From contig OZ244561.1 of NCBI GenBank assembly GCA_965217585.1, positions 3,040,001-3,104,000 of the forward strand: a stretch of 64,000 nt of DNA, written 5' to 3'. Position 1 is the first letter of the stretch. Every line of letters starts with the position of its first letter. The translations under genes were made by a program, and so were the position numbers. This DNA is from Candidatus Latescibacterota bacterium (GTDB taxonomy: Bacteria > Latescibacterota > UBA2968 > UBA8231). The notes below the pieces were generated by a model. It worked only from the letters and a program-made list of their open reading frames with translations, searched no databases and was not told where the DNA came from. Of the stretch, positions 4,376-19,355 are shown piece after piece.

Positions 4376-5269
4376 ATGCCCATCCGCTTCGTCTTCCTCA
4401 CCGACACTCACCACTACCCCGACGCCCCCGAAGACTACGGCGCGCCCAAGATGCTCACCCGCAGCCAGGAGGTGCACGACGCGATTCCCTCTGCCCTCAA
4501 CGCGCAGGCTTTCGATTTTGTCGTCCACGGCGGCGACTTCCTCTGTGGCGGGTCGTCCTTCGACCTGCCCACCGAGACCTATTTGCGCTCGATTGACGAG
4601 GCGGCTACGGCCTTCGCGCGGATTGAAGCCCCTTTCTACTCAATCCCCGGCAACCACGACTGCGACGCCCAGAGCGGATCCTTCGACGGTTTTGCCGCCC
4701 GCTTTCCCTATCCCGACCCGCTGATCGTCGTCGATGCCGCGCCGCGCCTGCGCTTGGCACTGGCCAATGTCTTCCACGACTGCGATGTCTTTGAGAAAGG
4801 GTCTGGCGTCTGGACCGACGTCTTGGATGAGGCTCTGCGCGCTGCCGCTGCTCAAGCTCTAGCCGATGGCTGTGCCCTGCTGCTCGTTCTCCACACTTGG
4901 GTTCTGCCCGAGTTCTCTTGGGACCACGGCGTGGTCGAAGGCGCGCCTCGTCTGGTCAAAACGCTCGACGAAAGCCCTGCTATCGTCGCTGCCTTCACCG
5001 GCCACCGCCACATCAACCGCATCACCGCCTACCGCGACTATCTAGTCGTCGATACGGCCTGTCTGATCGGCTTCCCCTTGGGGTATCGCAGCGTTGTGCT
5101 CTCTGACGATGGCTTTTTCAAGACGCGCTTCCACACTCTCGACCTGCCCGATCTACTACAAGCTTCCTACGACCGCTCGACGCCCGAGGAGAACCGGGTC
5201 TGGGAAGGTCACATCTTCGACCGGGACGTGGAGATTCTGGTGCCTCGGCTCAGGGCGCTGTGGGGTTGA
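4376..5269 (+). CDS. calcineurin-like metallophosphoesterase
   Basis: DTH, GGD, GNHD, GHRH motifs; AAGGAG RBS. Confidence 0.9.
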   Translation: MPIRFVFLTDTHHYPDAPEDYGAPKMLTRSQEVHDAIPSALNAQAFDFVVHGGDFLCGGSSFDLPTETYLRSIDEAATAFARIEAPFYSIPGNHDCDAQSGSFDGFAARFPYPDPLIVVDAAPRLRLALANVFHDCDVFEKGSGVWTDVLDEALRAAAAQALADGCALLLVLHTWVLPEFSWDHGVVEGAPRLVKTLDESPAIVAAFTGHRHINRITAYRDYLVVDTACLIGFPLGYRSVVLSDDGFFKTRFHTLDLPDLLQASYDRSTPEENRVWEGHIFDRDVEILVPRLRALWG

Positions 5270-5322: not shown

Positions 5323-6801
5323 TCACTCTCGGCCACCATAGCGGTTTAATAGCTCGGCTGTCTCAGTAGCATTGTGTTCCGTCGCAATGTGTAGTGGTGT
5401 CAGGCCATCGTCGCTCTCAGCGTTGACCTCGGCTCCCTGCTTAAGCAGCAGTTCGGCTGTCGCAGCAGCATCCGTCTCTGCCGCATTGTGCAGTGGCGTC
5501 AGCCCCTTGTCGGTTTTGGCGTTGATGTCGGCCTCTTGCTCGATCAACAATTGGGCTATTTCGGTTGCATTGTGTGCCGCCGCATAATGCAGCGGTGTCC
5601 AGCCCTTGTCGGCTTTGGCGTTGATGTCGGCTCCTTGCTCGATCAACAATTGGGCTATTTCGGTTGCATTGTGTACCGCCGCATGGTGCAGCGGTGTCCA
5701 GCCCTCGTCGGCTTTAGCATTGATGTCGGCTCCTTGCTCGATCAACAATTGGGCTATTTCGGTTGCATTGTGTGCCGCCACATGGTGCAGCGGAGTCAGC
5801 CCCTTGTCGATTTTAGCATTGATGTCGGCCCCTTGCTCGATCAACAATTGGGCTATTTCGATTGCATTGTTTGCCGCCGCATCGTGTAGTGGCGTCGATC
5901 CCCTGTTGCTCTTGGCGTTAACGTCGGCCCCTTGCGTTAGTAAGAGTTGGGCTATTTCGGTTGCATTGTTTGCCGCCGCGTTGTGCAGCGGTGTCCAGCC
6001 CTCGTCGGCTTTGGCGTTTATGTCGGCCCCTTGCTCGATCAACAATTGGGCTATTTCGATTGCATTGTGTACCGCCGCATGGTGCAGCGGTGTCCAGCCC
6101 TCGTCGATTTTAGCATTGATGTCGGCCCCTTGCTCGATCAACAATTGGGCTGTTTCGATTGCATTTTTACACGCTGCATTGTATAGCGGTGTCCAGCCCC
6201 CGTCGATTTTAGCATTGATGTCGGCCCCTTGCGTTAGTAAGAGTTGGGCTGTTTCGGTCGCATTGTTTGCCGCTGCATGGTGCAGCGGTGTCCAGCCCCC
6301 GTCGATTTTAGCATTGATGTCGGCCCCTTGCGTCAGTAAGAGTTGGGCTGTTTCGGTCGCATTTTCCCACGCTGCACTGTGTAGTGGCGTCCATCCCCTG
6401 TTGCTCTTGGCGTTAACGTCGGCTCCTTGCGTTAGTAAGAGTTGGGCTGTTTCGGTTGCATTTTCCCACGCTGCATAGTGCAGCGGTGTCCGGCCATCGT
6501 CGATTTTAGCATTGATGTCGGCCCCTTGCGTCAGTAAGAGTTGGGTTGTTTCAGTCGCATTGTTTGCCGCCGCATGGTGCAGTGGTGTCTCATCCTCGCT
6601 GTTCTTGGCGTTGACGTTAGCTCCCCATGTTATTAACAGTTGGGCCGTTTCAGCCATATTGTTTGCTGCTGCCCAGTGCAGTGGTGTCTTATCGGCCTTG
6701 ATACTGGCGAACAACACGAGGCCAATGACCAAGAGCACCACTATGCCCAAGACCTTGGCCAATCGCCGGGCTTTAGTCTTTTTTGGCGGTCCGTTGCTCA
6801 T
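5323..6801 (-). CDS. membrane-anchored ankyrin repeat protein (14 repeats)
   Basis: Basic N-terminus and TM helix, then 14 TPLHxAA...GADINAK 33-aa repeats. Confidence 0.95.
   Translation of the reverse strand: MSNGPPKKTKARRLAKVLGIVVLLVIGLVLFASIKADKTPLHWAAANNMAETAQLLITWGANVNAKNSEDETPLHHAAANNATETTQLLLTQGADINAKIDDGRTPLHYAAWENATETAQLLLTQGADVNAKSNRGWTPLHSAAWENATETAQLLLTQGADINAKIDGGWTPLHHAAANNATETAQLLLTQGADINAKIDGGWTPLYNAACKNAIETAQLLIEQGADINAKIDEGWTPLHHAAVHNAIEIAQLLIEQGADINAKADEGWTPLHNAAANNATEIAQLLLTQGADVNAKSNRGSTPLHDAAANNAIEIAQLLIEQGADINAKIDKGLTPLHHVAAHNATEIAQLLIEQGADINAKADEGWTPLHHAAVHNATEIAQLLIEQGADINAKADKGWTPLHYAAAHNATEIAQLLIEQEADINAKTDKGLTPLHNAAETDAAATAELLLKQGAEVNAESDDGLTPLHIATEHNATETAELLNRYGGRE
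5326..6690 (-). repeat. 99-bp tandem ankyrin-coding repeat array
   Basis: Near-identical DNA units, e.g. ttagcattgatgtcggccccttgc recurring every 99 bp. Confidence 0.9.
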
Positions 6802-7018: not shown

Positions 7019-7825
7019 ATGAGCCGCGATCTCCCCCGGACAATTTTAGGCCGCACCAATCTCGAGATTACCCGATTCGGCATCGGCGGCACGTATTGCG
7101 AGTCGGTCGATGGATACAGGGCGGCGCTCGATTGCGGCGTTAACTACGTCGATACGGCACGCAGCTATCAGGGCGGTGAAGACGAGAAGTTGATCGGCCA
7201 AGCGATCGAGGGCCGGCGCCACGATCTCATCATAGCCAGCAAATCCGCGCGGCGCGACGCCGCAGGGGCGCGCGAAGAGTTGCAAACCTCTTTGCGCGCG
7301 CTCAAAACAGACTATCTCGATATTTTCCAGCTCCACCACTTAAACACTGAAGAAGAACGCAACCAAGCGCTGGGCCCCGGCGGAGCATTAGAAGCCGCCC
7401 AACAAGCCCGCGAAGAAGGCCTAGTGCGCTTTATCGGCGTCACCGGACACGATTGGGTGCAAGTGGAACAGGCGGTCCGCACCGGCCACTTTGATACTGT
7501 ACTTTGCTGGTATAATTGCGCGATGAAAGAGCCGGAAGAAACGGTTTTTCCCGCAGCGCAGGCCGCCAAGACGGGCGTGGTGATCATGAACGCCTCGCGC
7601 AACGAGAGGTTGCTAAAAGGCCCCGGCGCGCCCGCCCCTGAACAATTCTATCGCTACGTGCTCAGCCACGACGCCGTGCATACCACGGTCATGGGTTTGC
7701 GCAATGTCGATCTCTTCGCACAAGTTGCCGCTGGTTTGTCGGAGCGCGAGATACTCACGCCCCAAGAGCGGGCTGAGCTTGAGTCCTATGGAGCACAACA
7801 GCGGGCGTCCGGGGTGCTGGAATGA
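7019..7825 (+). CDS. aldo/keto reductase
   Basis: LGRTNL, YVDTARSY, IIASK, LKTDYLDIFQLH, VRFIGVTGH. Confidence 0.9.
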   Translation: MSRDLPRTILGRTNLEITRFGIGGTYCESVDGYRAALDCGVNYVDTARSYQGGEDEKLIGQAIEGRRHDLIIASKSARRDAAGAREELQTSLRALKTDYLDIFQLHHLNTEEERNQALGPGGALEAAQQAREEGLVRFIGVTGHDWVQVEQAVRTGHFDTVLCWYNCAMKEPEETVFPAAQAAKTGVVIMNASRNERLLKGPGAPAPEQFYRYVLSHDAVHTTVMGLRNVDLFAQVAAGLSEREILTPQERAELESYGAQQRASGVLE

Positions 7826-8003: not shown

Positions 8004-8636
8004 GTGAGCGAAATGACTCATATGGCCGACAAGATCATGAAGAGAGTGTCCGCACACGGTAGGGGCAGGTGGGTGTGCACACCGAAGGACTTCCTAGACC
8101 TCGGCAGCCGTGAAGCCGTTGACCAAGCCTTGTCGCGTCTCGTCAAAGCGGATCAGCTACGCCGGGTCGGCCACGGGCTGTACGATATGCCTAGGATGAG
8201 CGACGTCCTGAAGCGGCCCGCGCCAGTCGATCTTGATGCCTCCATAGCAGCGCTCGCAAGAAGGGACGGTGTCCGTATTATGCCCGATGGCTTGGCGGCT
8301 GCGAATCAGCTTGGGCTCACCAACGCGCTACCTGCTAAGGCATCTTACGTGACGGATGGCTCCTCAAGGACGGTCAAGATCGACGGACGAACGGTCCGGT
8401 TCCGCCATGCGGGGCCGAGCGTCATGCAGTGGGCGGGAAAGCCGTCGGCACCGGTGGTGCAAGCGTTGCGCTGGCTTGGCCCAGAGGCTGCTGCCGACGC
8501 GCAGGTCGTTTCGATTTTGAGTCGCCATCTTCCCGACGCGGTGAAGCGCGATCTGTTCCAAAACAGCCGGCACCTGCCCGGTTGGGCGCTGCCGCTGGCA
8601 CGCAGTATCACGGCTGATCAGGCCGTTGCCGTATGA
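8004..8636 (+). CDS. type IV TA antitoxin, AbiEi-like (DUF6088 family)
   Basis: PKDFLDLGSREAVDQALSRL...RVGHGLY...AANQLGLT; ATGA overlap with AbiEii remnant. Confidence 0.8.
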   Translation: MSEMTHMADKIMKRVSAHGRGRWVCTPKDFLDLGSREAVDQALSRLVKADQLRRVGHGLYDMPRMSDVLKRPAPVDLDASIAALARRDGVRIMPDGLAAANQLGLTNALPAKASYVTDGSSRTVKIDGRTVRFRHAGPSVMQWAGKPSAPVVQALRWLGPEAAADAQVVSILSRHLPDAVKRDLFQNSRHLPGWALPLARSITADQAVAV

Positions 8637-11344: not shown

Positions 11345-12610
11345 CAGGGCAATCGCATTATAAGTTGATTTTTACCATGCGGTTATGTTACTTTTGGCCG
11401 TTCTATGGAGATTAGCTTCATGTCCTCCCATTTCCCTCTTGCTCGGAGTGTTTCTTCATGCCCTCATCGTCTTCAGGGTTGCTGGATTATCTGGCCGATA
11501 TCCCCGACCCGCGTATGGAGCGTTGTCGGGCGCATCGCTTGATTGATATTCTCATGATTGCGGTGTGTGGCTCTATCTGCGGGGCCGACAACTGGGTGGC
11601 GATCGCCGAATTTGGCCGGGCTAAAACCGACTGGCTTAAGACGTTCTTGGCTTTGCCCAACGGCATCCCCTCGCATGATACCTTCGGTCGCGTGTTGGCC
11701 CGTATTTCGCCTTGGCATTTCCAAGACTGTTTCACCGCTTGGGTGCAATCGCTGATGCCGAAGTTGGCCGACGAAGGCGAGATCGTGCCGCTGGATGGCA
11801 AGACGCTGCGCCGCTCCTACGATACAGGCTCGGGCCAAGCCGCCATCCACATGGTGCATGCTTGGGCGGTAAAAAATCGGCTGGTCTTGGGACAATTCCA
11901 TGGTGAAGAAGCCTTGGAAGAAATCTCGATTATCCCCGAATTATTACGCGTGTTAGGCCTCAAAGGCTGCCTGGTCACCACCGATGCGTTGGGGTGTCAT
12001 ACGAGCACGGCCGAACAGGTCGTCGAACAAGAGGCCGACTATGTGCTGGCCGTCAAGGCCAATCAACCCAAACTCCACGCCCATCTCCAACAGCTTTTTG
12101 ACCGTTCCGACTCGAAACTCCACGCTGATCCCGCCGTAGATTATTGGGGTACTCAGGACGAAAACCACGGGCGTTGCGAAACGCGGCAGTACTGGACCAC
12201 CGACCAGATCGAGGATTTTGCCGGGCATGCCCTGTGGCCGGGCTTACGCCTGTTTGGTATGGTCGAGGCCACCCGGCGCTGCGGCGATACTGTTTCGGTC
12301 GAACGACGTTACTATATCTCCACGCTGGACAACAACGCCCAACGGTTGGGGCAGGCCGTGCGCGGGCATTGGGCTATTGAGAATGCATTACACTGGATCC
12401 TTGATGTCGTCTTCAACGAAGATCAGTCCCGCATACGCCGGGGGCATGGCCCCGAAAATATGGCCGTTATACGCCACATCGCGCTCAATCTACTCCAGCA
12501 AGACAAAACGACCAAAGCCGGCATGCAAACCAAACGGCTCAAGGCTGGCTGGGACCACAAATATCTGGCTAAACTTTTGTCGCATGGCCATTTATAATGC
12601 GATTGCCCTG
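11345..12610 (+). mobile_element. ISAs1-family IS, copy 1
   Basis: Perfect 19-bp TIR CAGGGCAATCGCATTATAA; 9-bp TSD CCGGTGCGG at 11336-11344 and 12611-12619. Confidence 0.95.
11458..12597 (+). CDS. ISAs1 transposase
   Basis: DPR...H, PSHDTF, DGK, DALGC, VKANQ, HWAIENALHWILDV. Confidence 0.95.
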   Translation: MPSSSSGLLDYLADIPDPRMERCRAHRLIDILMIAVCGSICGADNWVAIAEFGRAKTDWLKTFLALPNGIPSHDTFGRVLARISPWHFQDCFTAWVQSLMPKLADEGEIVPLDGKTLRRSYDTGSGQAAIHMVHAWAVKNRLVLGQFHGEEALEEISIIPELLRVLGLKGCLVTTDALGCHTSTAEQVVEQEADYVLAVKANQPKLHAHLQQLFDRSDSKLHADPAVDYWGTQDENHGRCETRQYWTTDQIEDFAGHALWPGLRLFGMVEATRRCGDTVSVERRYYISTLDNNAQRLGQAVRGHWAIENALHWILDVVFNEDQSRIRRGHGPENMAVIRHIALNLLQQDKTTKAGMQTKRLKAGWDHKYLAKLLSHGHL

Positions 12611-13789
12611 CCGGTGCGGTCTTGTCGTTGCTAGATAACAGAGACTCGATTGCCGTAAAAAAGAAAAGGAATCGTTCCGCACGATCCACTGTCTGGCGTC
12701 CGCGGGTAAGCCAGCCAAGCCCTTGGCTGAAGCGCTTCGCCAAGCTATTCTTGTGAGGGTTAAAGATTACCCTTGCTCTATCCTTGAATTCTTTTTCTTT
12801 AGTTATCGCGGCTACAGCATCATCGACAACATATAATCTAGGGATTGATGAGTTTGTTTTTACATTGTTATTGAGTATGTCGATTATGATGCCTTGATCA
12901 TTTACTTTTGGCTTGATCAGTGGCATTGTCTCAACTTCACCGAATGAAGGAAAAAAATCAACTTTCGATCGTGAATAAGAAAGACGAAGAAAACTGATGG
13001 CGACATTGATCAACCAAGCAGCCTCTTCTCTGACATTTCCCTCGGTTACATCAACAGAGACGTGCCAGCAAATTTGAGGCAGTTGAATCAGCATTCCGTT
13101 CGGACCTAAGAATATAGAAAACTCTGATCCAGACTCGATATTGTAGTTCAAATTGGGTATTAAATCGTCCGATAGAATTGCTTCTACTGGACCAATTTCA
13201 ATTTTTCGTGCCTGTTCATGGAATTTTATTAAGTGATTTGGAGCGACATATTTGAAACTACGCTTCGTATGATTACTGAGTGCGTCCAAGAAGCGCTTCG
13301 TAATGATAGATACCTCTGGAGCTGAATTATTTGCGAGACTTAGCGCGACTTGCTCCCAAGCCAGTTCTTCAACTTCTTTTTCGTTTCCTAAATTTGCTCC
13401 CAATAGCTTAACGCATCGAGCGACAAAATCGTATTGTGCTTTGAGAACATCGTCAGTCACTACGAACAAGAAGCCTTTACTAAGTCTGATATCTTCTTTA
13501 ATAAAATCCTCTTCATTAAGCTGACTACGGTGAGAGGCACATGCAGCCCGAAAAAAGATGTCTGCTTTATTCTTAAGTTCTTGGTCTGATTTGCACTTGT
13601 TAATGACTTGGTTGTCCATAGCTCACTTCTCCTGAGATGCCGGCTTAAAATAGTGTTCGATCTAGCCAGAGCTTGAAAGGATGTAATGCCGTCCGTGTAG
13701 AGATGTTCATGTCGGTGCGAAGATGTAATTCTGACACAGTTTTTGCTTACGGTATTGGTGTTAATTGAGTCTGCCCAGAGACGACCCAC

Positions 13790-13985: not shown

Positions 13986-14207
13986 CTATCCGTTACTCTC
14001 CATCGCCGCACCCGAACAGGCAAACCGCAGACAGGCGCGAATATCCTCGGATTCAAGGTCTGGATGCTCGGCCAAAATCTGTTCAGTAGTCAAGTCGGCG
14101 GCGAGCAAATCCAGTACATCCGTGACGCGAATCCGCATCCCCCGAACACAGGGTCGTCCCCCGCATTGCTTGGGATTTACCGTGATGCGATCGGTTAGAA
14201 TAGCCAT
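13986..14207 (-). CDS. DUF433 family antitoxin-like protein
   Basis: RITVNPKQCGGRPCVRGMRIRV...HPDLESEDIRACL. Confidence 0.9.
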   Translation of the reverse strand: MAILTDRITVNPKQCGGRPCVRGMRIRVTDVLDLLAADLTTEQILAEHPDLESEDIRACLRFACSGAAMESNG

Positions 14208-14234: not shown

Positions 14235-16460
14235 TCAAGTTCGAAACCGCCAAGGAATAGTGGCGAAAAAATTTTTGATCTCCTCATAACGTTTCATTCT
14301 CTTTTTGAGGACTTGGAGGTCTTCTTGGCTGTCTTTAAAAGCATCTTTAAGCTCCTTGATATATTTCTTGTGCTGCTTATCAAGGTTATCTGCGCCCTTA
14401 TTGAAAGCAGTCAAAGTTTCCTTCCAGAAGGATTCGGAATCCTTCTCAATGCTTGAAAGTACGTTCTTCTCATCAAACAAGCCTTTGATTTTCTTGGCCA
14501 AACGTAGTTGCCAACTGTCTCCAAAAAGCAATTTAAAAGAAGCTCCTACCGCAATGGCCACTCCGAGTGCTAAGGTAATTGGCCCTCCCAGTGTCGAGAC
14601 AAGTGCAGTGGCACCAGCCGTACCGCCCGCGACAGAGATTCCCGTAGCGGACAGAGCACTAACCCCCTTTGCAACGATCACATATCCGCCAAGGTTGCCC
14701 AAGGTGGCAGCCCAAGCACCAAGGGCACCAAGGGTACCAAGTCCCGCTAATCCCCCGATAAATGCCCCCCTTGCATCAAATGGTGTGGAAAATTCTTCTT
14801 TTATGTTCGCATTGCCGAACTTTCCTATTTGCTCATCGTAGCTTTTTACGAATTTCTCAATGATATTGCGAGTCTCATTTATTAATTTTTCCCGATGACT
14901 CGCCGTCTTGGATTGAATTTCTTTAAGGACATAAGCGGAGGCATACTTCTGAGCGTCTTTCTTATCCTTGTAGCGTCGTTTTATCATCGCCTCCAGTTTC
15001 TCGACTTTCGTTTCCTCTTCAAAAACCGCTCGTATTTTTTTTAAATCTTCTTCCTTGAATGTGGTAATTTTCTTTTTTATTCGCGTCACCTCTTTATCAT
15101 AGTTCTTCTTTCTTTCAGGTTCCTCCATTTCCAATCGTTTATAGTAACTTCTTGCTTCTTTCAGATGTCTCCGAATTTTCTCATATCCGCTGATTGCCTT
15201 CGCGTAAGTGTCTGTTCCCTCCTCCTTAAATTTGAGGATTTCTTGTCCTGCAAGAATCCTCTTAATGGACGGCATTTTCTGCTCCAGCAAGTCTTTTAAT
15301 TCCTTTTCCAGCTTTTCTCGTTTGCGGGGCTCTTCTTGGTAAAAGCTGAAAAAACGAGCGGCAACATCCTTACTCGATATTAGCCGTCCGTGCCTGCTTA
15401 ATTTTTTAAGGAGATTGCCTTCAAGGTGGTTATAGAGTGCCTCGCTCCCCCCTTTTAATATCTCATCCTCAAGCTGGGGTCTTTTTATACCTGGATGGGC
15501 GTGCGAAGCAATGATGAAAAGATTGCCGAGAATGGGAAAGTTCTCATCAATTGCTCTATAAGGTGGGATGCTGCGTAATAAATGGCTAAGATGTGCGAGG
15601 TCTCCACCATCGATAAATCCTTGCGCAGGACAAAGATACAACAAAACCTCTGCACGACGGCCTAGCCGATCAATAACAGAGGCATTTGTCATCTCGTCGT
15701 CGTATCCAGGCAAATCTACTAAGACGCACGAGTGGAGCAATGGAGCTTTGATAAAAGCCAAGACGGCTCCTTCCTCACTCTTATCTTTTCTACCTTCTAG
15801 GTGGCCTTTCGTGCGTAGCGTATCCCAACTCCCGGCCAAGACGCGGTTATCGGTACAGTACTTTTCCTCGTTCCATCTCTCAGGATCAAAATCAGGTCCC
15901 ATGAGCCACAGATCTTCCTTAAACCATTCGGGCTGGTCAGAGGTATGACGAACAAATGTTGGGTACTTTGTTACTGGACGGTAACCAGTGGGAAGTTGAT
16001 CCCCTCCTAAGTAGAAATTGCAGAGATGGGACTTCCCCGCATCAAAATGCCCGGTGAGTACAACCCATGGTTTTTCTTTTAAGGCGGTAACACGGTCACG
16101 GAACTGCTTAACAGTTGGGTTAATTGGTTCATCCCCCATCTTTTCAAGGTGGGGAAATCGGTCAATGTACTGCCGCAGTAGATTTAAGTCTTCTGTAAGA
16201 GACCCATACAGACTGCTATCGAAGTCAAAGATTGTTTCTTCTGACTCTGACGGGAGTGGAAGAAGCTCGTCAAGAAGCTCAAGAAGCTCGTCAATTGTGC
16301 ATCCTATGGCTCTCGCCCACGCTCTTAACAGATTACTAGGAATTTCTCTGTTGGCCTCGTATTTGGATACTTGGGCTTGAGTAATATCAAGGCTTTGAGC
16401 TAGATCAGCTTGGGTCAATCTTGCTTCTTTTCTAAGTGCCGCTAAGTCCTTTACAGACAT
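14235..16460 (-). CDS. XRE-HTH fused dynamin-like (LeoA-type) GTPase
   Basis: N-terminal HTH (LRKEARLTQADLA..ITQAQVSKYE); G1 GHFDAGKS, G2 PVT, G3 DLPG; coiled coil; long Gly/Ala hydrophobic segment near C-terminus. Confidence 0.75.
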   Translation of the reverse strand: MSVKDLAALRKEARLTQADLAQSLDITQAQVSKYEANREIPSNLLRAWARAIGCTIDELLELLDELLPLPSESEETIFDFDSSLYGSLTEDLNLLRQYIDRFPHLEKMGDEPINPTVKQFRDRVTALKEKPWVVLTGHFDAGKSHLCNFYLGGDQLPTGYRPVTKYPTFVRHTSDQPEWFKEDLWLMGPDFDPERWNEEKYCTDNRVLAGSWDTLRTKGHLEGRKDKSEEGAVLAFIKAPLLHSCVLVDLPGYDDEMTNASVIDRLGRRAEVLLYLCPAQGFIDGGDLAHLSHLLRSIPPYRAIDENFPILGNLFIIASHAHPGIKRPQLEDEILKGGSEALYNHLEGNLLKKLSRHGRLISSKDVAARFFSFYQEEPRKREKLEKELKDLLEQKMPSIKRILAGQEILKFKEEGTDTYAKAISGYEKIRRHLKEARSYYKRLEMEEPERKKNYDKEVTRIKKKITTFKEEDLKKIRAVFEEETKVEKLEAMIKRRYKDKKDAQKYASAYVLKEIQSKTASHREKLINETRNIIEKFVKSYDEQIGKFGNANIKEEFSTPFDARGAFIGGLAGLGTLGALGAWAATLGNLGGYVIVAKGVSALSATGISVAGGTAGATALVSTLGGPITLALGVAIAVGASFKLLFGDSWQLRLAKKIKGLFDEKNVLSSIEKDSESFWKETLTAFNKGADNLDKQHKKYIKELKDAFKDSQEDLQVLKKRMKRYEEIKNFFATIPWRFRT

Positions 16461-16518
16461 CAGACAACCTCCTTTATGATTTCTGCGATGTTTTCCACGA
16501 TCGAGCTGTTGAGTTAAG

Positions 16519-16824
16519 TTATCGTTTCGCCAACCCCTTCTGCCGTCCGAGGCGCAGTGTGCGTTTCTGATCCGCTGGCCGTGAGGGATAGGCGGTGACG
16601 ACGCTCTTGCCGCGCATCACGACCTTGCAATTCGCAAGGCGTTCCAGTACTTGGATTTCCCGCTTGCGGATCTCGATTTCGCGGGCGACATCCCGCCTGA
16701 GCGCAATCCAAGCCTCGTCGTCAACCTGCGTTCCCCACTCGATAATGAGGGGAATATCCTTTTCGCGAATGCCCCGCTGCTGCATGCGCGTCTCGGCGTG
16801 GCGGGTATAAGTGATGTCAGTCAT
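16519..16824 (-). CDS. DUF4258-like small protein (putative RNase toxin fold)
   Basis: YTRHAETRMQQRGI...VVMRGKSVVTAY. Confidence 0.7.
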   Translation of the reverse strand: MTDITYTRHAETRMQQRGIREKDIPLIIEWGTQVDDEAWIALRRDVAREIEIRKREIQVLERLANCKVVMRGKSVVTAYPSRPADQKRTLRLGRQKGLAKR

Positions 16825-16909
16825 TGGTCCTCTCCTCCATTTTTCATTTAGGAGTTGGTCCTTCGGGAATCAGCCTCTCACTTACCACTCTTTCTCTAAA
16901 ACTCTGCGT

Positions 16910-16938
16910 AATATATAATCTCAAAATACTCGTGTCAA
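16910..16938 (-). promoter_or_regulatory. sigma70-type promoter of the DUF4258/HTH-dynamin operon
   Basis: TTGACA-17 bp-TATATT; palindrome GAATAT-TT-ATATTC at 16968-16981 is a candidate operator. Confidence 0.65.
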
Positions 16939-17117
16939 GATTTATTTAGTAATTTTATTCCAAATATGAATATTTATATTCGCAGGCCAAGGTGAGAGAG
17001 ATTTCTCATATTTAGAGAACACATGTTCAATAGTTAAGTCGGTGGCAAGCAAATCCAGCACATTTCAAAAAATTTACCAGACCTGTGATGCAGGCGGTGC
17101 TTATGGGTAAATACCTT

Positions 17118-19355
17118 ATGAGCGATACCGATCTTTCATCTCTCGTCATCCGCGCCCAGACCGGCGACCGCGCAGCCTACGACGGCATCGTCCGCCGTTT
17201 CCAGGACATGGCGGTAGGCTACGCCTCTGCGTTGCTGGGCGATTTCCACTTGGCTGAGGATGCGGCTCAGGAGGCCTTTGTCGGGGCCTGGACCGAGTTG
17301 CCGCGCTTGCGGGAACCGGCGGCCTTTCCGGGGTGGTTCAAGCGCATTGTTTTTATGCGCTGTAGCCGCTTTTTGCGCCAACGGCATCCGGCGGCGAGAT
17401 GCGAGATGGAGGAGGTACGGCCGCTGGCGGTGAGGGATCCGGGGGAGGAACTTGAGTCGCGCGACGAGAAGGCCCAGGTCTTGGGTGCGATTGGGCGGCT
17501 GCCCGACCAGGAGCGGATGGCGACGATGCTGTTTTACATTTCGGCCTATTCGCACCAAGAAATCGCCTCGTTTTTGGGCTTGTCTGCGGCGACGGTCAAC
17601 AACCGGTTGCGCTCGGCTCGCAAACACCTACGCAAGGAGATGCTGAAGATGGCTAAACGGGAATTGCAGGGACAGGCCCCTTCGCGCGACGAGCGCTTCG
17701 CGCAGCGGGTCGCGCATCTGCTCCAGCCCGAAGACATGAAGACCGAGCACTACCAATACGGGATCGAGGCCGTGGACGGGCATCCGGCTTGGGCGCTTTT
17801 TTGCGCCAGCGGGGCCGGCGATCTAGCGCGGGTCAGCGCGTTACTCGACCGCGACCCCAAGTTGGTCAATGCCCAGTACTGGTACCAGTTTCCCATTCAC
17901 ATGGCGGTGCGCGAGGGCCATGTCGAGGTGGTCCAGCTATTGTTGCAGGCTGGGGCCGATCCGGGCCAGTCGCGCTATACCTATAATTCGTGGGACAAGC
18001 TACTAGCCATCGCCGAGGAGCGCGACTACGGGGAGGTGCAGGCGCTGTTGGTGGCGGCGATGTGCGAGCGCTTTGGCTACGATCCGGGTTTTGTTGTGCT
18101 GGCCGAGGCGATCAAAGGCCGCGACCGGGCGCGGGTCGAGGCGGTGCTGGCCGAGCATCCCGACTTTATCCGTGCCGCCGACGCGCTGGGCAACGGGCCG
18201 CTGCACTGGGCGGCGCTGACGCGGCAAAACGACTTGGTGGATTTCTTTGTCGCACGGGGTGCCGACCTCGAAGCCCGCCGCGCCGATGGCCAGACTCCGC
18301 TACTGGTCTCGCTCAACGGCGACTACTGGTTTCGGACGCGTGATCTGTCGGCGGAAGCGCCGCAAGATCCGTGGATCGTCACCCGCCACTTGCTCGCTTG
18401 CGGTGCGGAGTACGCTCTCAGCATCGCCTGTGCGGCCGGCGATGAAGACCGCGTCGATGCGGTACTGGCGGCCAATCCGGCCCAAGCCCGTACTCTCGAT
18501 GCTGGATGTCCGCTGTCCTATGCCGCTGGCAACGGTCATACCCGAATCGTCGAAAAACTGCTGGATTGGGGTGCCGACCCCAATCAGTCCGAAGAAAATG
18601 CGCCGCGCGGCGGAGCGCTCTTCGGCGCTTGCGCGGGCAACCACTTGGAGACGGCGAAACTGCTGCTGGAACGCGGTGCCGATCCCAACGCCGGGGTGGA
18701 CTCTTCGGGCTCGTGCTTGACCATTGTCGAGGTCAGGCACGGCAAGAAAGGCCAACAAATGCAGGCGCTGTTGCGCGAACACGGTGCCGTGATGCCGCCC
18801 TTTGCCATGGACGACGCGGCGCTGGAACGGGCGATGCGCGAAGGAGAGGTCGTCGTTGCACACCCACAATTTTTGCACGAGTTGATGGGAAGGGACAATC
18901 CTGCGCTCATTGGCGTCTTCTTGGCAACCACGCCGAATGTAGACGACCTGTTCCAACTGACCGACATCTGGGGCGGCAACTACCCTTCGGATCCCGATAC
19001 AATCCGCACCTTGGCCGACCGCGGCCTCGACCTACACCGCGCCAACTGGATCGGCCGCACCTTTCTGCACGGCTGTGCGGAAAAGGGCGATGTGGCGGCG
19101 GCTCGCGTCTTTTTGGAATTGGGAGCCGATATAGAGGCGATCGAGTTGGAATACGGGGGGACGCCTTTGGCCACTGCGGCGCGCAAGGGGCAGGCGGAGA
19201 TGGTGCGGTTTCTATTGCAACAAGGTGCCGATCCAGCCGTGCCGGCCGAATCGCCTTGGGCGCAGCCGCTTTATTGGGCGGAGAAGGAGGGACATGGGGA
19301 AGTGGCGGTGTTGCTCAAAGAGTGGTTCGACGGGAAAGGCGCTGGCGGCGGTTAG
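17118..19355 (+). CDS. ECF sigma-70 factor with C-terminal ankyrin-repeat extension
   Basis: sigma2 AEDAAQEAF..FPGWFKRI; sigma4 YSHQEIASFLGLSAATVNNRLRSAR; ankyrin motifs PIHMAVREGH, GPLHWAA, GTPLATAARKG. Confidence 0.9.
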   Translation: MSDTDLSSLVIRAQTGDRAAYDGIVRRFQDMAVGYASALLGDFHLAEDAAQEAFVGAWTELPRLREPAAFPGWFKRIVFMRCSRFLRQRHPAARCEMEEVRPLAVRDPGEELESRDEKAQVLGAIGRLPDQERMATMLFYISAYSHQEIASFLGLSAATVNNRLRSARKHLRKEMLKMAKRELQGQAPSRDERFAQRVAHLLQPEDMKTEHYQYGIEAVDGHPAWALFCASGAGDLARVSALLDRDPKLVNAQYWYQFPIHMAVREGHVEVVQLLLQAGADPGQSRYTYNSWDKLLAIAEERDYGEVQALLVAAMCERFGYDPGFVVLAEAIKGRDRARVEAVLAEHPDFIRAADALGNGPLHWAALTRQNDLVDFFVARGADLEARRADGQTPLLVSLNGDYWFRTRDLSAEAPQDPWIVTRHLLACGAEYALSIACAAGDEDRVDAVLAANPAQARTLDAGCPLSYAAGNGHTRIVEKLLDWGADPNQSEENAPRGGALFGACAGNHLETAKLLLERGADPNAGVDSSGSCLTIVEVRHGKKGQQMQALLREHGAVMPPFAMDDAALERAMREGEVVVAHPQFLHELMGRDNPALIGVFLATTPNVDDLFQLTDIWGGNYPSDPDTIRTLADRGLDLHRANWIGRTFLHGCAEKGDVAAARVFLELGADIEAIELEYGGTPLATAARKGQAEMVRFLLQQGADPAVPAESPWAQPLYWAEKEGHGEVAVLLKEWFDGKGAGGG

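Follow-up and report, generated by a model that had tools for sequence, protein, structure and literature searches.

Bacterial dynamin-like proteins (DLPs) are known from membrane repair, membrane fusion and anti-phage defence, and their regulation and signalling are largely open. Members of the BDLP/mitofusin class (Nostoc BDLP, 2j68/2j69; Campylobacter DLP1/2, 5owv/5oxf; IniA, 6j72) share a GTPase domain, a long helical stalk and a membrane-inserting tip. Here we analyse a two-gene locus in a stretch of 64,000 nucleotides (nt) from a Candidatus Latescibacterota genome (contig OZ244561.1, positions 3,040,001 to 3,104,000; hereafter the window), in which a small DUF4258-like gene (gene 1) precedes a gene for a dynamin-like GTPase carrying an N-terminal helix-turn-helix (HTH) domain of the XRE type (gene 2).

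Among systems that invite comparison, the Eleos anti-phage system comprises two genes, LeoA and LeoBC, according to the accessible part of its description (bioRxiv 10.1101/2022.12.12.520048). The accessible text of another source lists DUF4258 among the BECR-fold RelE/ParE toxins, with an antitoxin-first gene order and 17 fusions to the HTH-containing antitoxin MqsA, and treats it as a family without experimental work (PMC11980606), while the available part of a preprint places it with colicin-like BECR domains and says that it overlaps Ntox49 (bioRxiv 10.64898/2026.08.28.747851).

A dynamin-like GTPase with a repressor-type N-terminus

Profile matches and a predicted model identify the 741-amino-acid (aa) product of gene 2 as an XRE-HTH fused to a dynamin-like GTPase of the BDLP/mitofusin class (coordinates of its domains are given in Table 1). 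Pfam Dynamin_N covers residues 133-283 (1.1e-11), and the HTH profile of the family matches, among PDB sequences, the 434 repressor (2.3e-6), HipB, PezA, HigA2 and HigA3. The G1 (GxxxxGK[ST]), G2 threonine and G3 DxxG elements of the dynamin superfamily are all present; across 26 aligned members of the family the P-loop residues G137, D140, G142 and K143, as well as T164 and D249-x-P251-G252, are invariant, and S144 is conserved in at least 90% of the sequences. The N/TKxD motif of G4 is absent from the GTPase domain, the only [NT][KR]x[DE] of the protein being TKVE at residue 484, in the stalk; at the G4 position after the expected strand every aligned member has A-S/T-H/Q-A-H/N, that is, ASHAH or a close variant.

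The AlphaFold2 (AF2) model of gene 2 (mean predicted local distance difference test, pLDDT, 75.6) comprises an N-terminal domain of five helices, the GTPase core, a stalk of very long helices and further helices at the C-terminus, with helices spanning residues 378-546 and 650-733. Foldseek matches it with probability 1.00 to BDLP 2j69 (1.8e-10), Campylobacter DLP1/2 (5oxf and 5owv), mitofusins and IniA, the best fold matches to this class ranging from 1.8e-10 to 2.8e-8, and also to LeoA 4aur (4.8e-7); the family profile matches the Campylobacter DLP 5owv_C (1.6e-9) around the P-loop. Residues 568-650 contain 19 glycines and 16 alanines (35 of 83 residues) with a Kyte-Doolittle maximum of 2.06, and this hydrophobic hairpin, which is conserved across the family alignment and coincides with a low-confidence region of the model (573-646), suggests by its hydropathy that the protein may associate with the membrane. 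A 7-residue in-frame insertion of an ELLELLD-type repeat occupies residues ~60-66 (window ~16260-16280), in the linker after the HTH; it is missing in the aligned homologues and in an RNA-library contig of a relative, where 21 nt are left out at 16260.

Compared with the BDLP/mitofusin class, gene 2 adds the N-terminal XRE-HTH and a conserved linker, has ASHAH instead of N/TKxD at G4 and a much longer Gly/Ala hydrophobic stretch (~80 aa), and it usually occurs as a single gene, not as one of a DLP pair. With Eleos it shares a match of residues 397-725 to the PADLOC LeoBC model (7.8e-10) and, in several relatives, defence-island-like surroundings; however, the GTPase half lies outside the LeoBC match, and the accessible text on Eleos does not report its proteins with an HTH (bioRxiv 10.1101/2022.12.12.520048). 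A PADLOC scan of three neighbouring open reading frames (ORFs), namely gene 1, the DUF433 gene and a 398-aa ORF, gave no match, LeoA included, and therefore the locus is not Eleos. We place it among the bacterial dynamin-like proteins, as a novel variant. Our search of open-access papers and bioRxiv text, which excluded subscription journals and supplements, found no account of a dynamin-like protein with HTH, XRE or AbiJ.

The first-pass annotation, made from the letters of the window, had described two intact reading frames (101 and 741 aa), a near-consensus promoter with an upstream palindrome, a DUF4258-like gene followed by an XRE-HTH fused to a dynamin-like GTPase, intact G1 to G3 with an atypical G4, and a Gly/Ala-rich paddle of about 80 aa, and all of this was borne out, the toxin-like gene standing first and the XRE-HTH gene second behind the palindromic promoter as it had proposed. 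Its remark that it knew of no described system with such an architecture also stands: no PADLOC-defined system fits, and the LeoBC match is partial. The same annotation had expected its proposal to fall if the HTH fusion were peculiar to this assembly, and the fusion proves to be widespread.

The family, clustered at 50% identity, has 749 representatives at E<=1e-3 and 373 at E<=1e-30, and 85 clusters at 90% identity. Among 150 representatives listed, 122 align from query residue 26 or earlier, so these relatives include the HTH. Genomes of GTDB species yielded 47 loci (30 cyanobacterial, 5 from Latescibacterota, 3 each from Binatia and Acetobacteraceae, 2 from an uncultured proteobacterium, and single loci from Poribacteria, Myxococcales, Nitrospirota and Chromatiales), to which metagenomes add 24 loci related to dynamin; within the phylum of the window the dynamin gene occurs in 7 of 168 genomes. 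A search of viral contigs gave 22 pattern matches, none of them a dynamin relative. The genome of the window has also, 337 kb from the locus, a separate classical dynamin-like gene without HTH (L051, G000:C1:2717039 onward; open frame of ~740 aa), which matches Dynamin_N (7.7e-18) and the PADLOC models LeoA (5.8e-16) and LeoBC (7.9e-15).

Clustering of neighbours by BLAST over the 47 genome loci found no neighbour common to more than 3 of them. For a Pfam scan, 116 same-strand flanking ORFs of the genome and metagenome loci were hand-picked from 146 listed (at least 60 aa), with overlapping frames and duplicate loci removed, and the commonest families were AbiJ_NTD4 (4), Phage_integrase (3), DUF433 (3), KAP_NTPase (2) and DUF4258 (2); a Tn3 transposase, a D12 methylase and SIR2 are also found beside family members. 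The HTH-dynamin fusion is thus a large uncharacterised family that is patchily distributed, stands alone in most genomes and lies amid mobile and defence genes. The AbiJ_NTD4 proteins (314-317 aa) are encoded ~75-85 nt 3' of the dynamin homologue in four loci of cyanobacterial or metagenomic origin (L011:8324-9265, L046:8324-9274, L091:4686-5633 and L092:7317-8258), and that of L011, the sole one scanned, matches the PADLOC candidate PDC-S32 (7.7e-53); possibly they represent a second kind of dynamin partner.

Gene 1 in the dynamin leader and elsewhere

In four relatives (L004, L005, L082, L007) the dynamin ORF directly follows a TTGACA-17-TATAT[T/C] promoter, itself preceded by an AT-rich element, and therefore the promoter-plus-gene unit looks autonomous. 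The promoter and the AT-rich element 5' of gene 1 in the window align with these, and elements resembling that of the window also stand 5' of the promoter in L081, L001, L002, L003, L004 and L005. A scan of the region gave 2 promoter-like sites against 4.2 expected, hence no enrichment, the TTGACA-17-TATATT site scoring best. The palindrome has its arms at 16963-16974 and 16969-16980, and for AAATATGAATATTT (16962-16975) the window has one occurrence where 0.02 are expected.

Both junctions of gene 1 are common to the window, L001 and L002, and the arrangement of gene 1 with dynamin was found in 3 of the 31 genomes searched in the genus (the window's own included) and in metagenomic relatives. 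In L081 the dynamin, 88% identical to that of the window and intact at 733 aa, has the same flanks (the sigma/ankyrin gene, DUF433 and a 456-aa ORF), and gene 1 has suffered an internal deletion of 193 nt that shifts its frame, the first 20 nt and approximately the last 110 nt being kept. From the promoter homology, the shared junctions and this deletion it follows that the dynamin leader has received gene 1 as an insert, which can be lost again. The base composition agrees with two parts of unlike character, gene 2 having 45.0% and the leader 35% guanine plus cytosine (GC), and gene 1 59.7% (71% at third codon positions), against 58.5% for the whole window. The earlier description as an AT-rich two-gene operon was therefore half right: the operon-like layout (a 58-nt gap with AAGGAGG) and the AT-rich gene 2 and leader were found as described, whereas gene 1 is not AT-rich, and the whole is a mosaic of AT-rich gene 2 and leader with a host-like gene 1. 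Ratios of nonsynonymous to synonymous substitution (dN/dS) in comparisons of the window with its relatives L001, L002 and L081 are 0.42-0.53 for gene 1 and 0.39-0.48 for gene 2, which indicates purifying selection on both.

Since gene 1 lies between the cassette promoter and the dynamin ORF, both genes would be co-transcribed. Contigs from RNA libraries of two studies span the junction of the genes: X18 covers 16354-16562 with 1 mismatch to the window, and X21, ~92% identical, covers 15411-16890 and runs into adapter sequence ~20 nt past the -10 box. In some runs 16928-17100 and parts of the genes are uncovered, and contigs of this kind cannot show absence.

The DUF433 gene, in turn, lies just past gene 2, and a scan for terminator-like sites on the minus strand between the two found none. 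A DUF433 gene stands 3' of the dynamin also in L001, L002 and L081 (gap ~30 nt), and it may belong to the operon in the lineage of the window. In L003 a DUF433 homologue is located ~750 nt upstream of the dynamin.

As to its identity, gene 1 is, judged by its sequence, a borderline DUF4258 relative. Pfam DUF4258 (PF14076) scores 25.5 bits against a cut-off of 25 and over profile positions 1-27 of 71 only, so that the earlier assignment holds by a narrow margin, and the match is an N-terminal H-x3-R-x3-QRG-type motif; in the ESM Atlas 21 of the 30 nearest clusters fall under a set headed by a DUF4258 cluster (score 0.91). The AF2 model (pLDDT 76.7) has two N-terminal helices, a long helix (36-64), a beta-hairpin with the only two strands, and a C-terminal helix. 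Foldseek against PDB gave no match to this model at E<=0.001, hence none to RelE/BECR; the wide VIA-align search gave a best Z of 4.0, all matches being look-alikes of the long helix; and the family profile had no match among PDB sequences at E<=10. A check of the folds, which the first-pass annotation had proposed for both proteins, thus places gene 2 in the BDLP class and does not return a RelE/BECR fold for gene 1.

In the phylum, 35 of 168 genomes contain a member of the gene 1 family, which is typically partnered not by the dynamin but by another XRE-HTH protein, encoded upstream. Of 29 gene 1 loci fetched from other genomes, 25 lie directly 3' of an XRE-HTH protein of 330-435 aa, 2 have dynamin downstream, and 2 are truncated copies with neither partner. 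The genome of the window has such a module as well, at C1:1358115 (L049, G000:C1:1356811-1359100), with a 435-aa XRE-HTH protein, a 100-aa gene 1 paralogue (71% identical) that overlaps it by 4 nt, and an EcsC-like protein of 208 aa. No known family covers the large C-terminal part of this XRE-HTH protein, for which the best ESM Atlas score of 0.76 is a lead only. The first 130 residues of the dynamin have no specific similarity to this usual partner (best E 3.5). Gene 1 of the window is 81-84% identical to partner-linked copies of sister genomes, and on a tree, whose alignment is too short to resolve one clade, the dynamin-linked copies stand amid partner-linked ones of the same bacterial family.

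A DUF4258-like neighbour was found in 8 of 71 loci related to the dynamin, in addition to the remnant in L081, and this count is a floor, since many metagenome loci have short flanks; 63 of the 71 are without one. Beyond the lineage of the window, Acetobacteraceae (L038, L040, L041) have a DUF4258-like ORF upstream (hhalign probability 86%, E 4.7e-6; hmmsearch E 3e-4 to 7.5e-3), and Binatia L007 has one 590 nt downstream of the dynamin (E 1.3e-4). In L082 and L083, which are possibly one organism sampled twice, the dynamin has a DUF4258-like gene (E 9.4e-8) as an intact copy of 89 aa at a distance of 77 nt downstream and, upstream, as a 5' copy that is truncated. The promoter-plus-dynamin unit of L082 is bracketed by a direct repeat of 97 nt (4708-4804 and 7294-7390, 92% identical) that takes in the ribosome-binding site and the initial 87 nt of the DUF4258-like gene, the upstream copy being the truncated and the downstream copy the intact one. 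This repeat may have arisen by insertion or by unequal recombination.

A second kind of small gene uses the same slot. L006 has a 102-aa GIY-YIG-like ORF (5639-5944, plus strand; Pfam 5.5e-5) 60 nt upstream of the dynamin homologue, where gene 1 stands in the window, and L003 retains at 5860-5975 a GIY-YIG remnant, only the last ~45 nt with the same spacer, behind an AT-rich promoter element like that of the window. This pair parallels gene 1 of the window and its remnant in L081, and small nuclease-like genes thus appear, by sequence comparison, to enter and leave the dynamin operon repeatedly.

Readings of the locus

We favour, at even strength of belief and doubt, the view that the locus is an autonomous mobile HTH-dynamin cassette in which gene 1 is a lineage-specific accessory toxin-like gene under the cassette promoter, and the function of the cassette is probably conflict-related. 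Domain logic and promoter architecture suggest how it could work. The HTH would repress its own promoter through the predicted operator, the dynamin body would sit in or on the membrane, and a membrane disturbance or GTP-driven assembly would pull the protein off the operator, a release that would give more dynamin and, here, more of the accessory gene 1, which may be toxic. A DUF4258-like gene of host composition, normally found behind another XRE-HTH protein, has been inserted between the cassette promoter and the dynamin ORF. If this is true, a repressor-type DNA-binding domain on a dynamin would tie the membrane state to transcription in one polypeptide, and the operon, with small nuclease-like genes as its optional members, suggests how a protein that surveys the membrane could acquire effectors.

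Several observations weigh against this view. The candidate operator is the AT-rich palindrome only, and exact matches to AAATATNNATATTT are confined to loci from the window's own genome, so it is not a conserved exact operator. GTP specificity is uncertain, because G4 is non-canonical. The RNA libraries may carry DNA, X21 having also yielded an 11-kb contig, and because of such possible carry-over the RNA contigs hint only weakly at co-transcription of the two genes from the predicted promoter. DUF4258-like genes stand beside the dynamin in three distinct lineages, and in Acetobacteraceae the ORF ends a few nucleotides before the dynamin start, which speaks for a role of gene 1 beyond that of a passenger. 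The GIY-YIG gene at this position in L006, with its remnant in L003, is likewise easier to reconcile with a genuine toxin-and-regulator design than with accident.

A wider proposal, which we regard as rather improbable, is that the HTH-dynamin is the conserved core of a new modular class of conflict systems. A membrane-anchored GTPase with an XRE self-repressor would there be combined with swappable effectors (DUF4258/BECR-like in three lineages, GIY-YIG in a fourth) in the leader or just downstream, and membrane disturbance by phage would lead to expression or release of the toxin. Another reading, which we consider unlikely, is the HigBA-style toxin-antitoxin or abortive-infection pair of the first-pass annotation, in which gene 1 would be a BECR-type toxin, and the HTH-dynamin would repress the operon, neutralise gene 1 by contact and free it on membrane damage or phage entry. 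The layout is suggestive, with a toxin-like gene first and an XRE-HTH gene second under one promoter with a palindrome and with an HTH profile that matches HigA2, HigA3 and HipB; the usual partner of gene 1 is likewise an XRE-HTH protein, DUF4258-like genes recur by distant dynamin homologues (L038, L040, L041; L082, L083; L007), and the loss of the toxin with retention of its partner in L081 is the pattern that toxin-antitoxin decay predicts. The available text of PMC11980606 likewise places DUF4258 in the RelE/ParE BECR superfamily, with the 17 MqsA fusions, and gene 1 resembles that family in its motif and its XRE-HTH partners. However, that text gives antitoxin-first as the gene order, and gene 1 departs from the family in covering 27 of 71 profile positions and in its predicted fold, with the long helix 36-64, only two strands and no RelE/BECR match. 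Neither is gene 1 a HigB/RelE by Pfam, and the dynamin N-terminus is without specific similarity to its usual partner. A complex prediction for gene 2 with gene 1 (full length, own alignments) scored 0.04 against a mark of 0.32, which says nothing either way. The place of the antitoxin is here taken by a 741-aa GTPase, predicted to be a membrane protein, instead of a small dedicated antitoxin tied to its toxin, and linkage is optional: 63 of the 71 related loci are without a DUF4258-like neighbour, and therefore the dynamin has an independent function. As a conserved pair the module that had been proposed does not hold, since gene 1 is usually partnered by another XRE-HTH (25 of 29), lies within the dynamin promoter-leader and has decayed in L081; the suggested test of co-occurrence gave recurrence of DUF4258-like genes by distant homologues and at the same time showed that the pair is not a conserved unit. 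Membership in HigBA proper was ruled out by the size of the partner and by the same 63 loci.

Conversely, gene 1 could be an orphan, or a passenger, that was translocated here as a copy from the host's own module of 435-aa XRE-HTH protein and gene 1 and has no functional tie to the dynamin; its product would be harmless or checked in trans by the paralogous XRE-HTH partner. We give this little credence. Its close identity to partner-linked sister copies, higher than to the own-genome copy, the position of the dynamin-linked copies among partner-linked ones on the poorly resolved tree, its host-like GC and its deletion in L081 with the dynamin retained all agree with such an origin, but the window, L001 and L002 have kept the same junctions, gene 1 is there under purifying selection (dN/dS 0.09-0.53), and DUF4258-like genes arrived beside the dynamin family independently in two other lineages, as did a GIY-YIG gene in the same slot. 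Still more remote, in our opinion, is that the HTH is a protein-contact module and not a DNA-binding repressor, the whole being a housekeeping membrane-remodelling dynamin outside of conflict. The XRE-type HTH of RodZ binds MreB, and the hydrophobic hairpin suggests permanent membrane anchoring, which would be awkward for a soluble repressor. Against it stand the patchy spread (7 of 168 genomes), the AT-rich foreign composition, the neighbourhood of integrases, Tn3 transposase, AbiJ/PDC-S32, KAP NTPases and SIR2, the presence of a separate classical dynamin-like gene in the genome, and a profile that matches bona fide repressors and antitoxins.

Feature coordinates and neighbouring genes

Table 1. 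Features of the HTH-dynamin locus, in positions of the window
Feature	Coordinates	Strand	Evidence
Gene 2, 741-aa XRE-HTH fused to dynamin-like GTPase	14235-16460	-	Open ORF
Cro/C1-type HTH, gene 2 residues 6-59	16284-16445	-	Pfam HTH_3 2.6e-11
Dynamin-type GTPase domain, gene 2 residues ~130-375 (G1 GHFDAGKS, G2 T164, G3 DLPG, G4 position ASHAH)	15336-16073	-	
Gly/Ala-rich hydrophobic hairpin ("paddle"), gene 2 residues 568-650	14511-14759	-	Hydropathy, composition, family alignment
Gene 1, small DUF4258-like protein of 101 aa, C-terminal tail basic; GC-rich, inserted in dynamin leader	16519-16824	-	Open ORF
Intergenic spacer, 58 nt, with ribosome-binding site AAGGAGG ahead of gene 2	16461-16518	-	Near-identical in L081, L001, L002; spanned by RNA-library contigs
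Sigma-70-type promoter TTGACA-17-TATATT	16910-16938	-	11 of 12 consensus matches; homologous promoters before dynamin ORF in L004, L005, L082, L007
AT-rich palindrome AAATAT-NN-ATATTT, ~25 nt 5' of the -35 box; candidate XRE-HTH operator	16962-16980	-	
DUF433 gene, possibly third cistron	13986-14207	-	Pfam DUF433 2.5e-24; starts 27 nt past gene 2 stop

Further along the minus strand a 398-aa ORF (12423-13619) without Pfam family has lost the 3' part of what in L081 is a complete 456-aa ORF (L081:6652-8022); it was probably cut by an insertion sequence, because an IS4-type DDE transposase gene (11458-12597, plus strand) overlaps its end. Divergent from the operon, a gene at 17085-19355 (plus strand) joins an ECF-type sigma factor to ankyrin repeats; its L081 homologue is split into two ORFs. 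The window contains also a DUF6088/AbiEi-like gene (8004-8636, plus strand) and a gene for a 492-aa ankyrin-repeat protein (5323-6801, minus strand).

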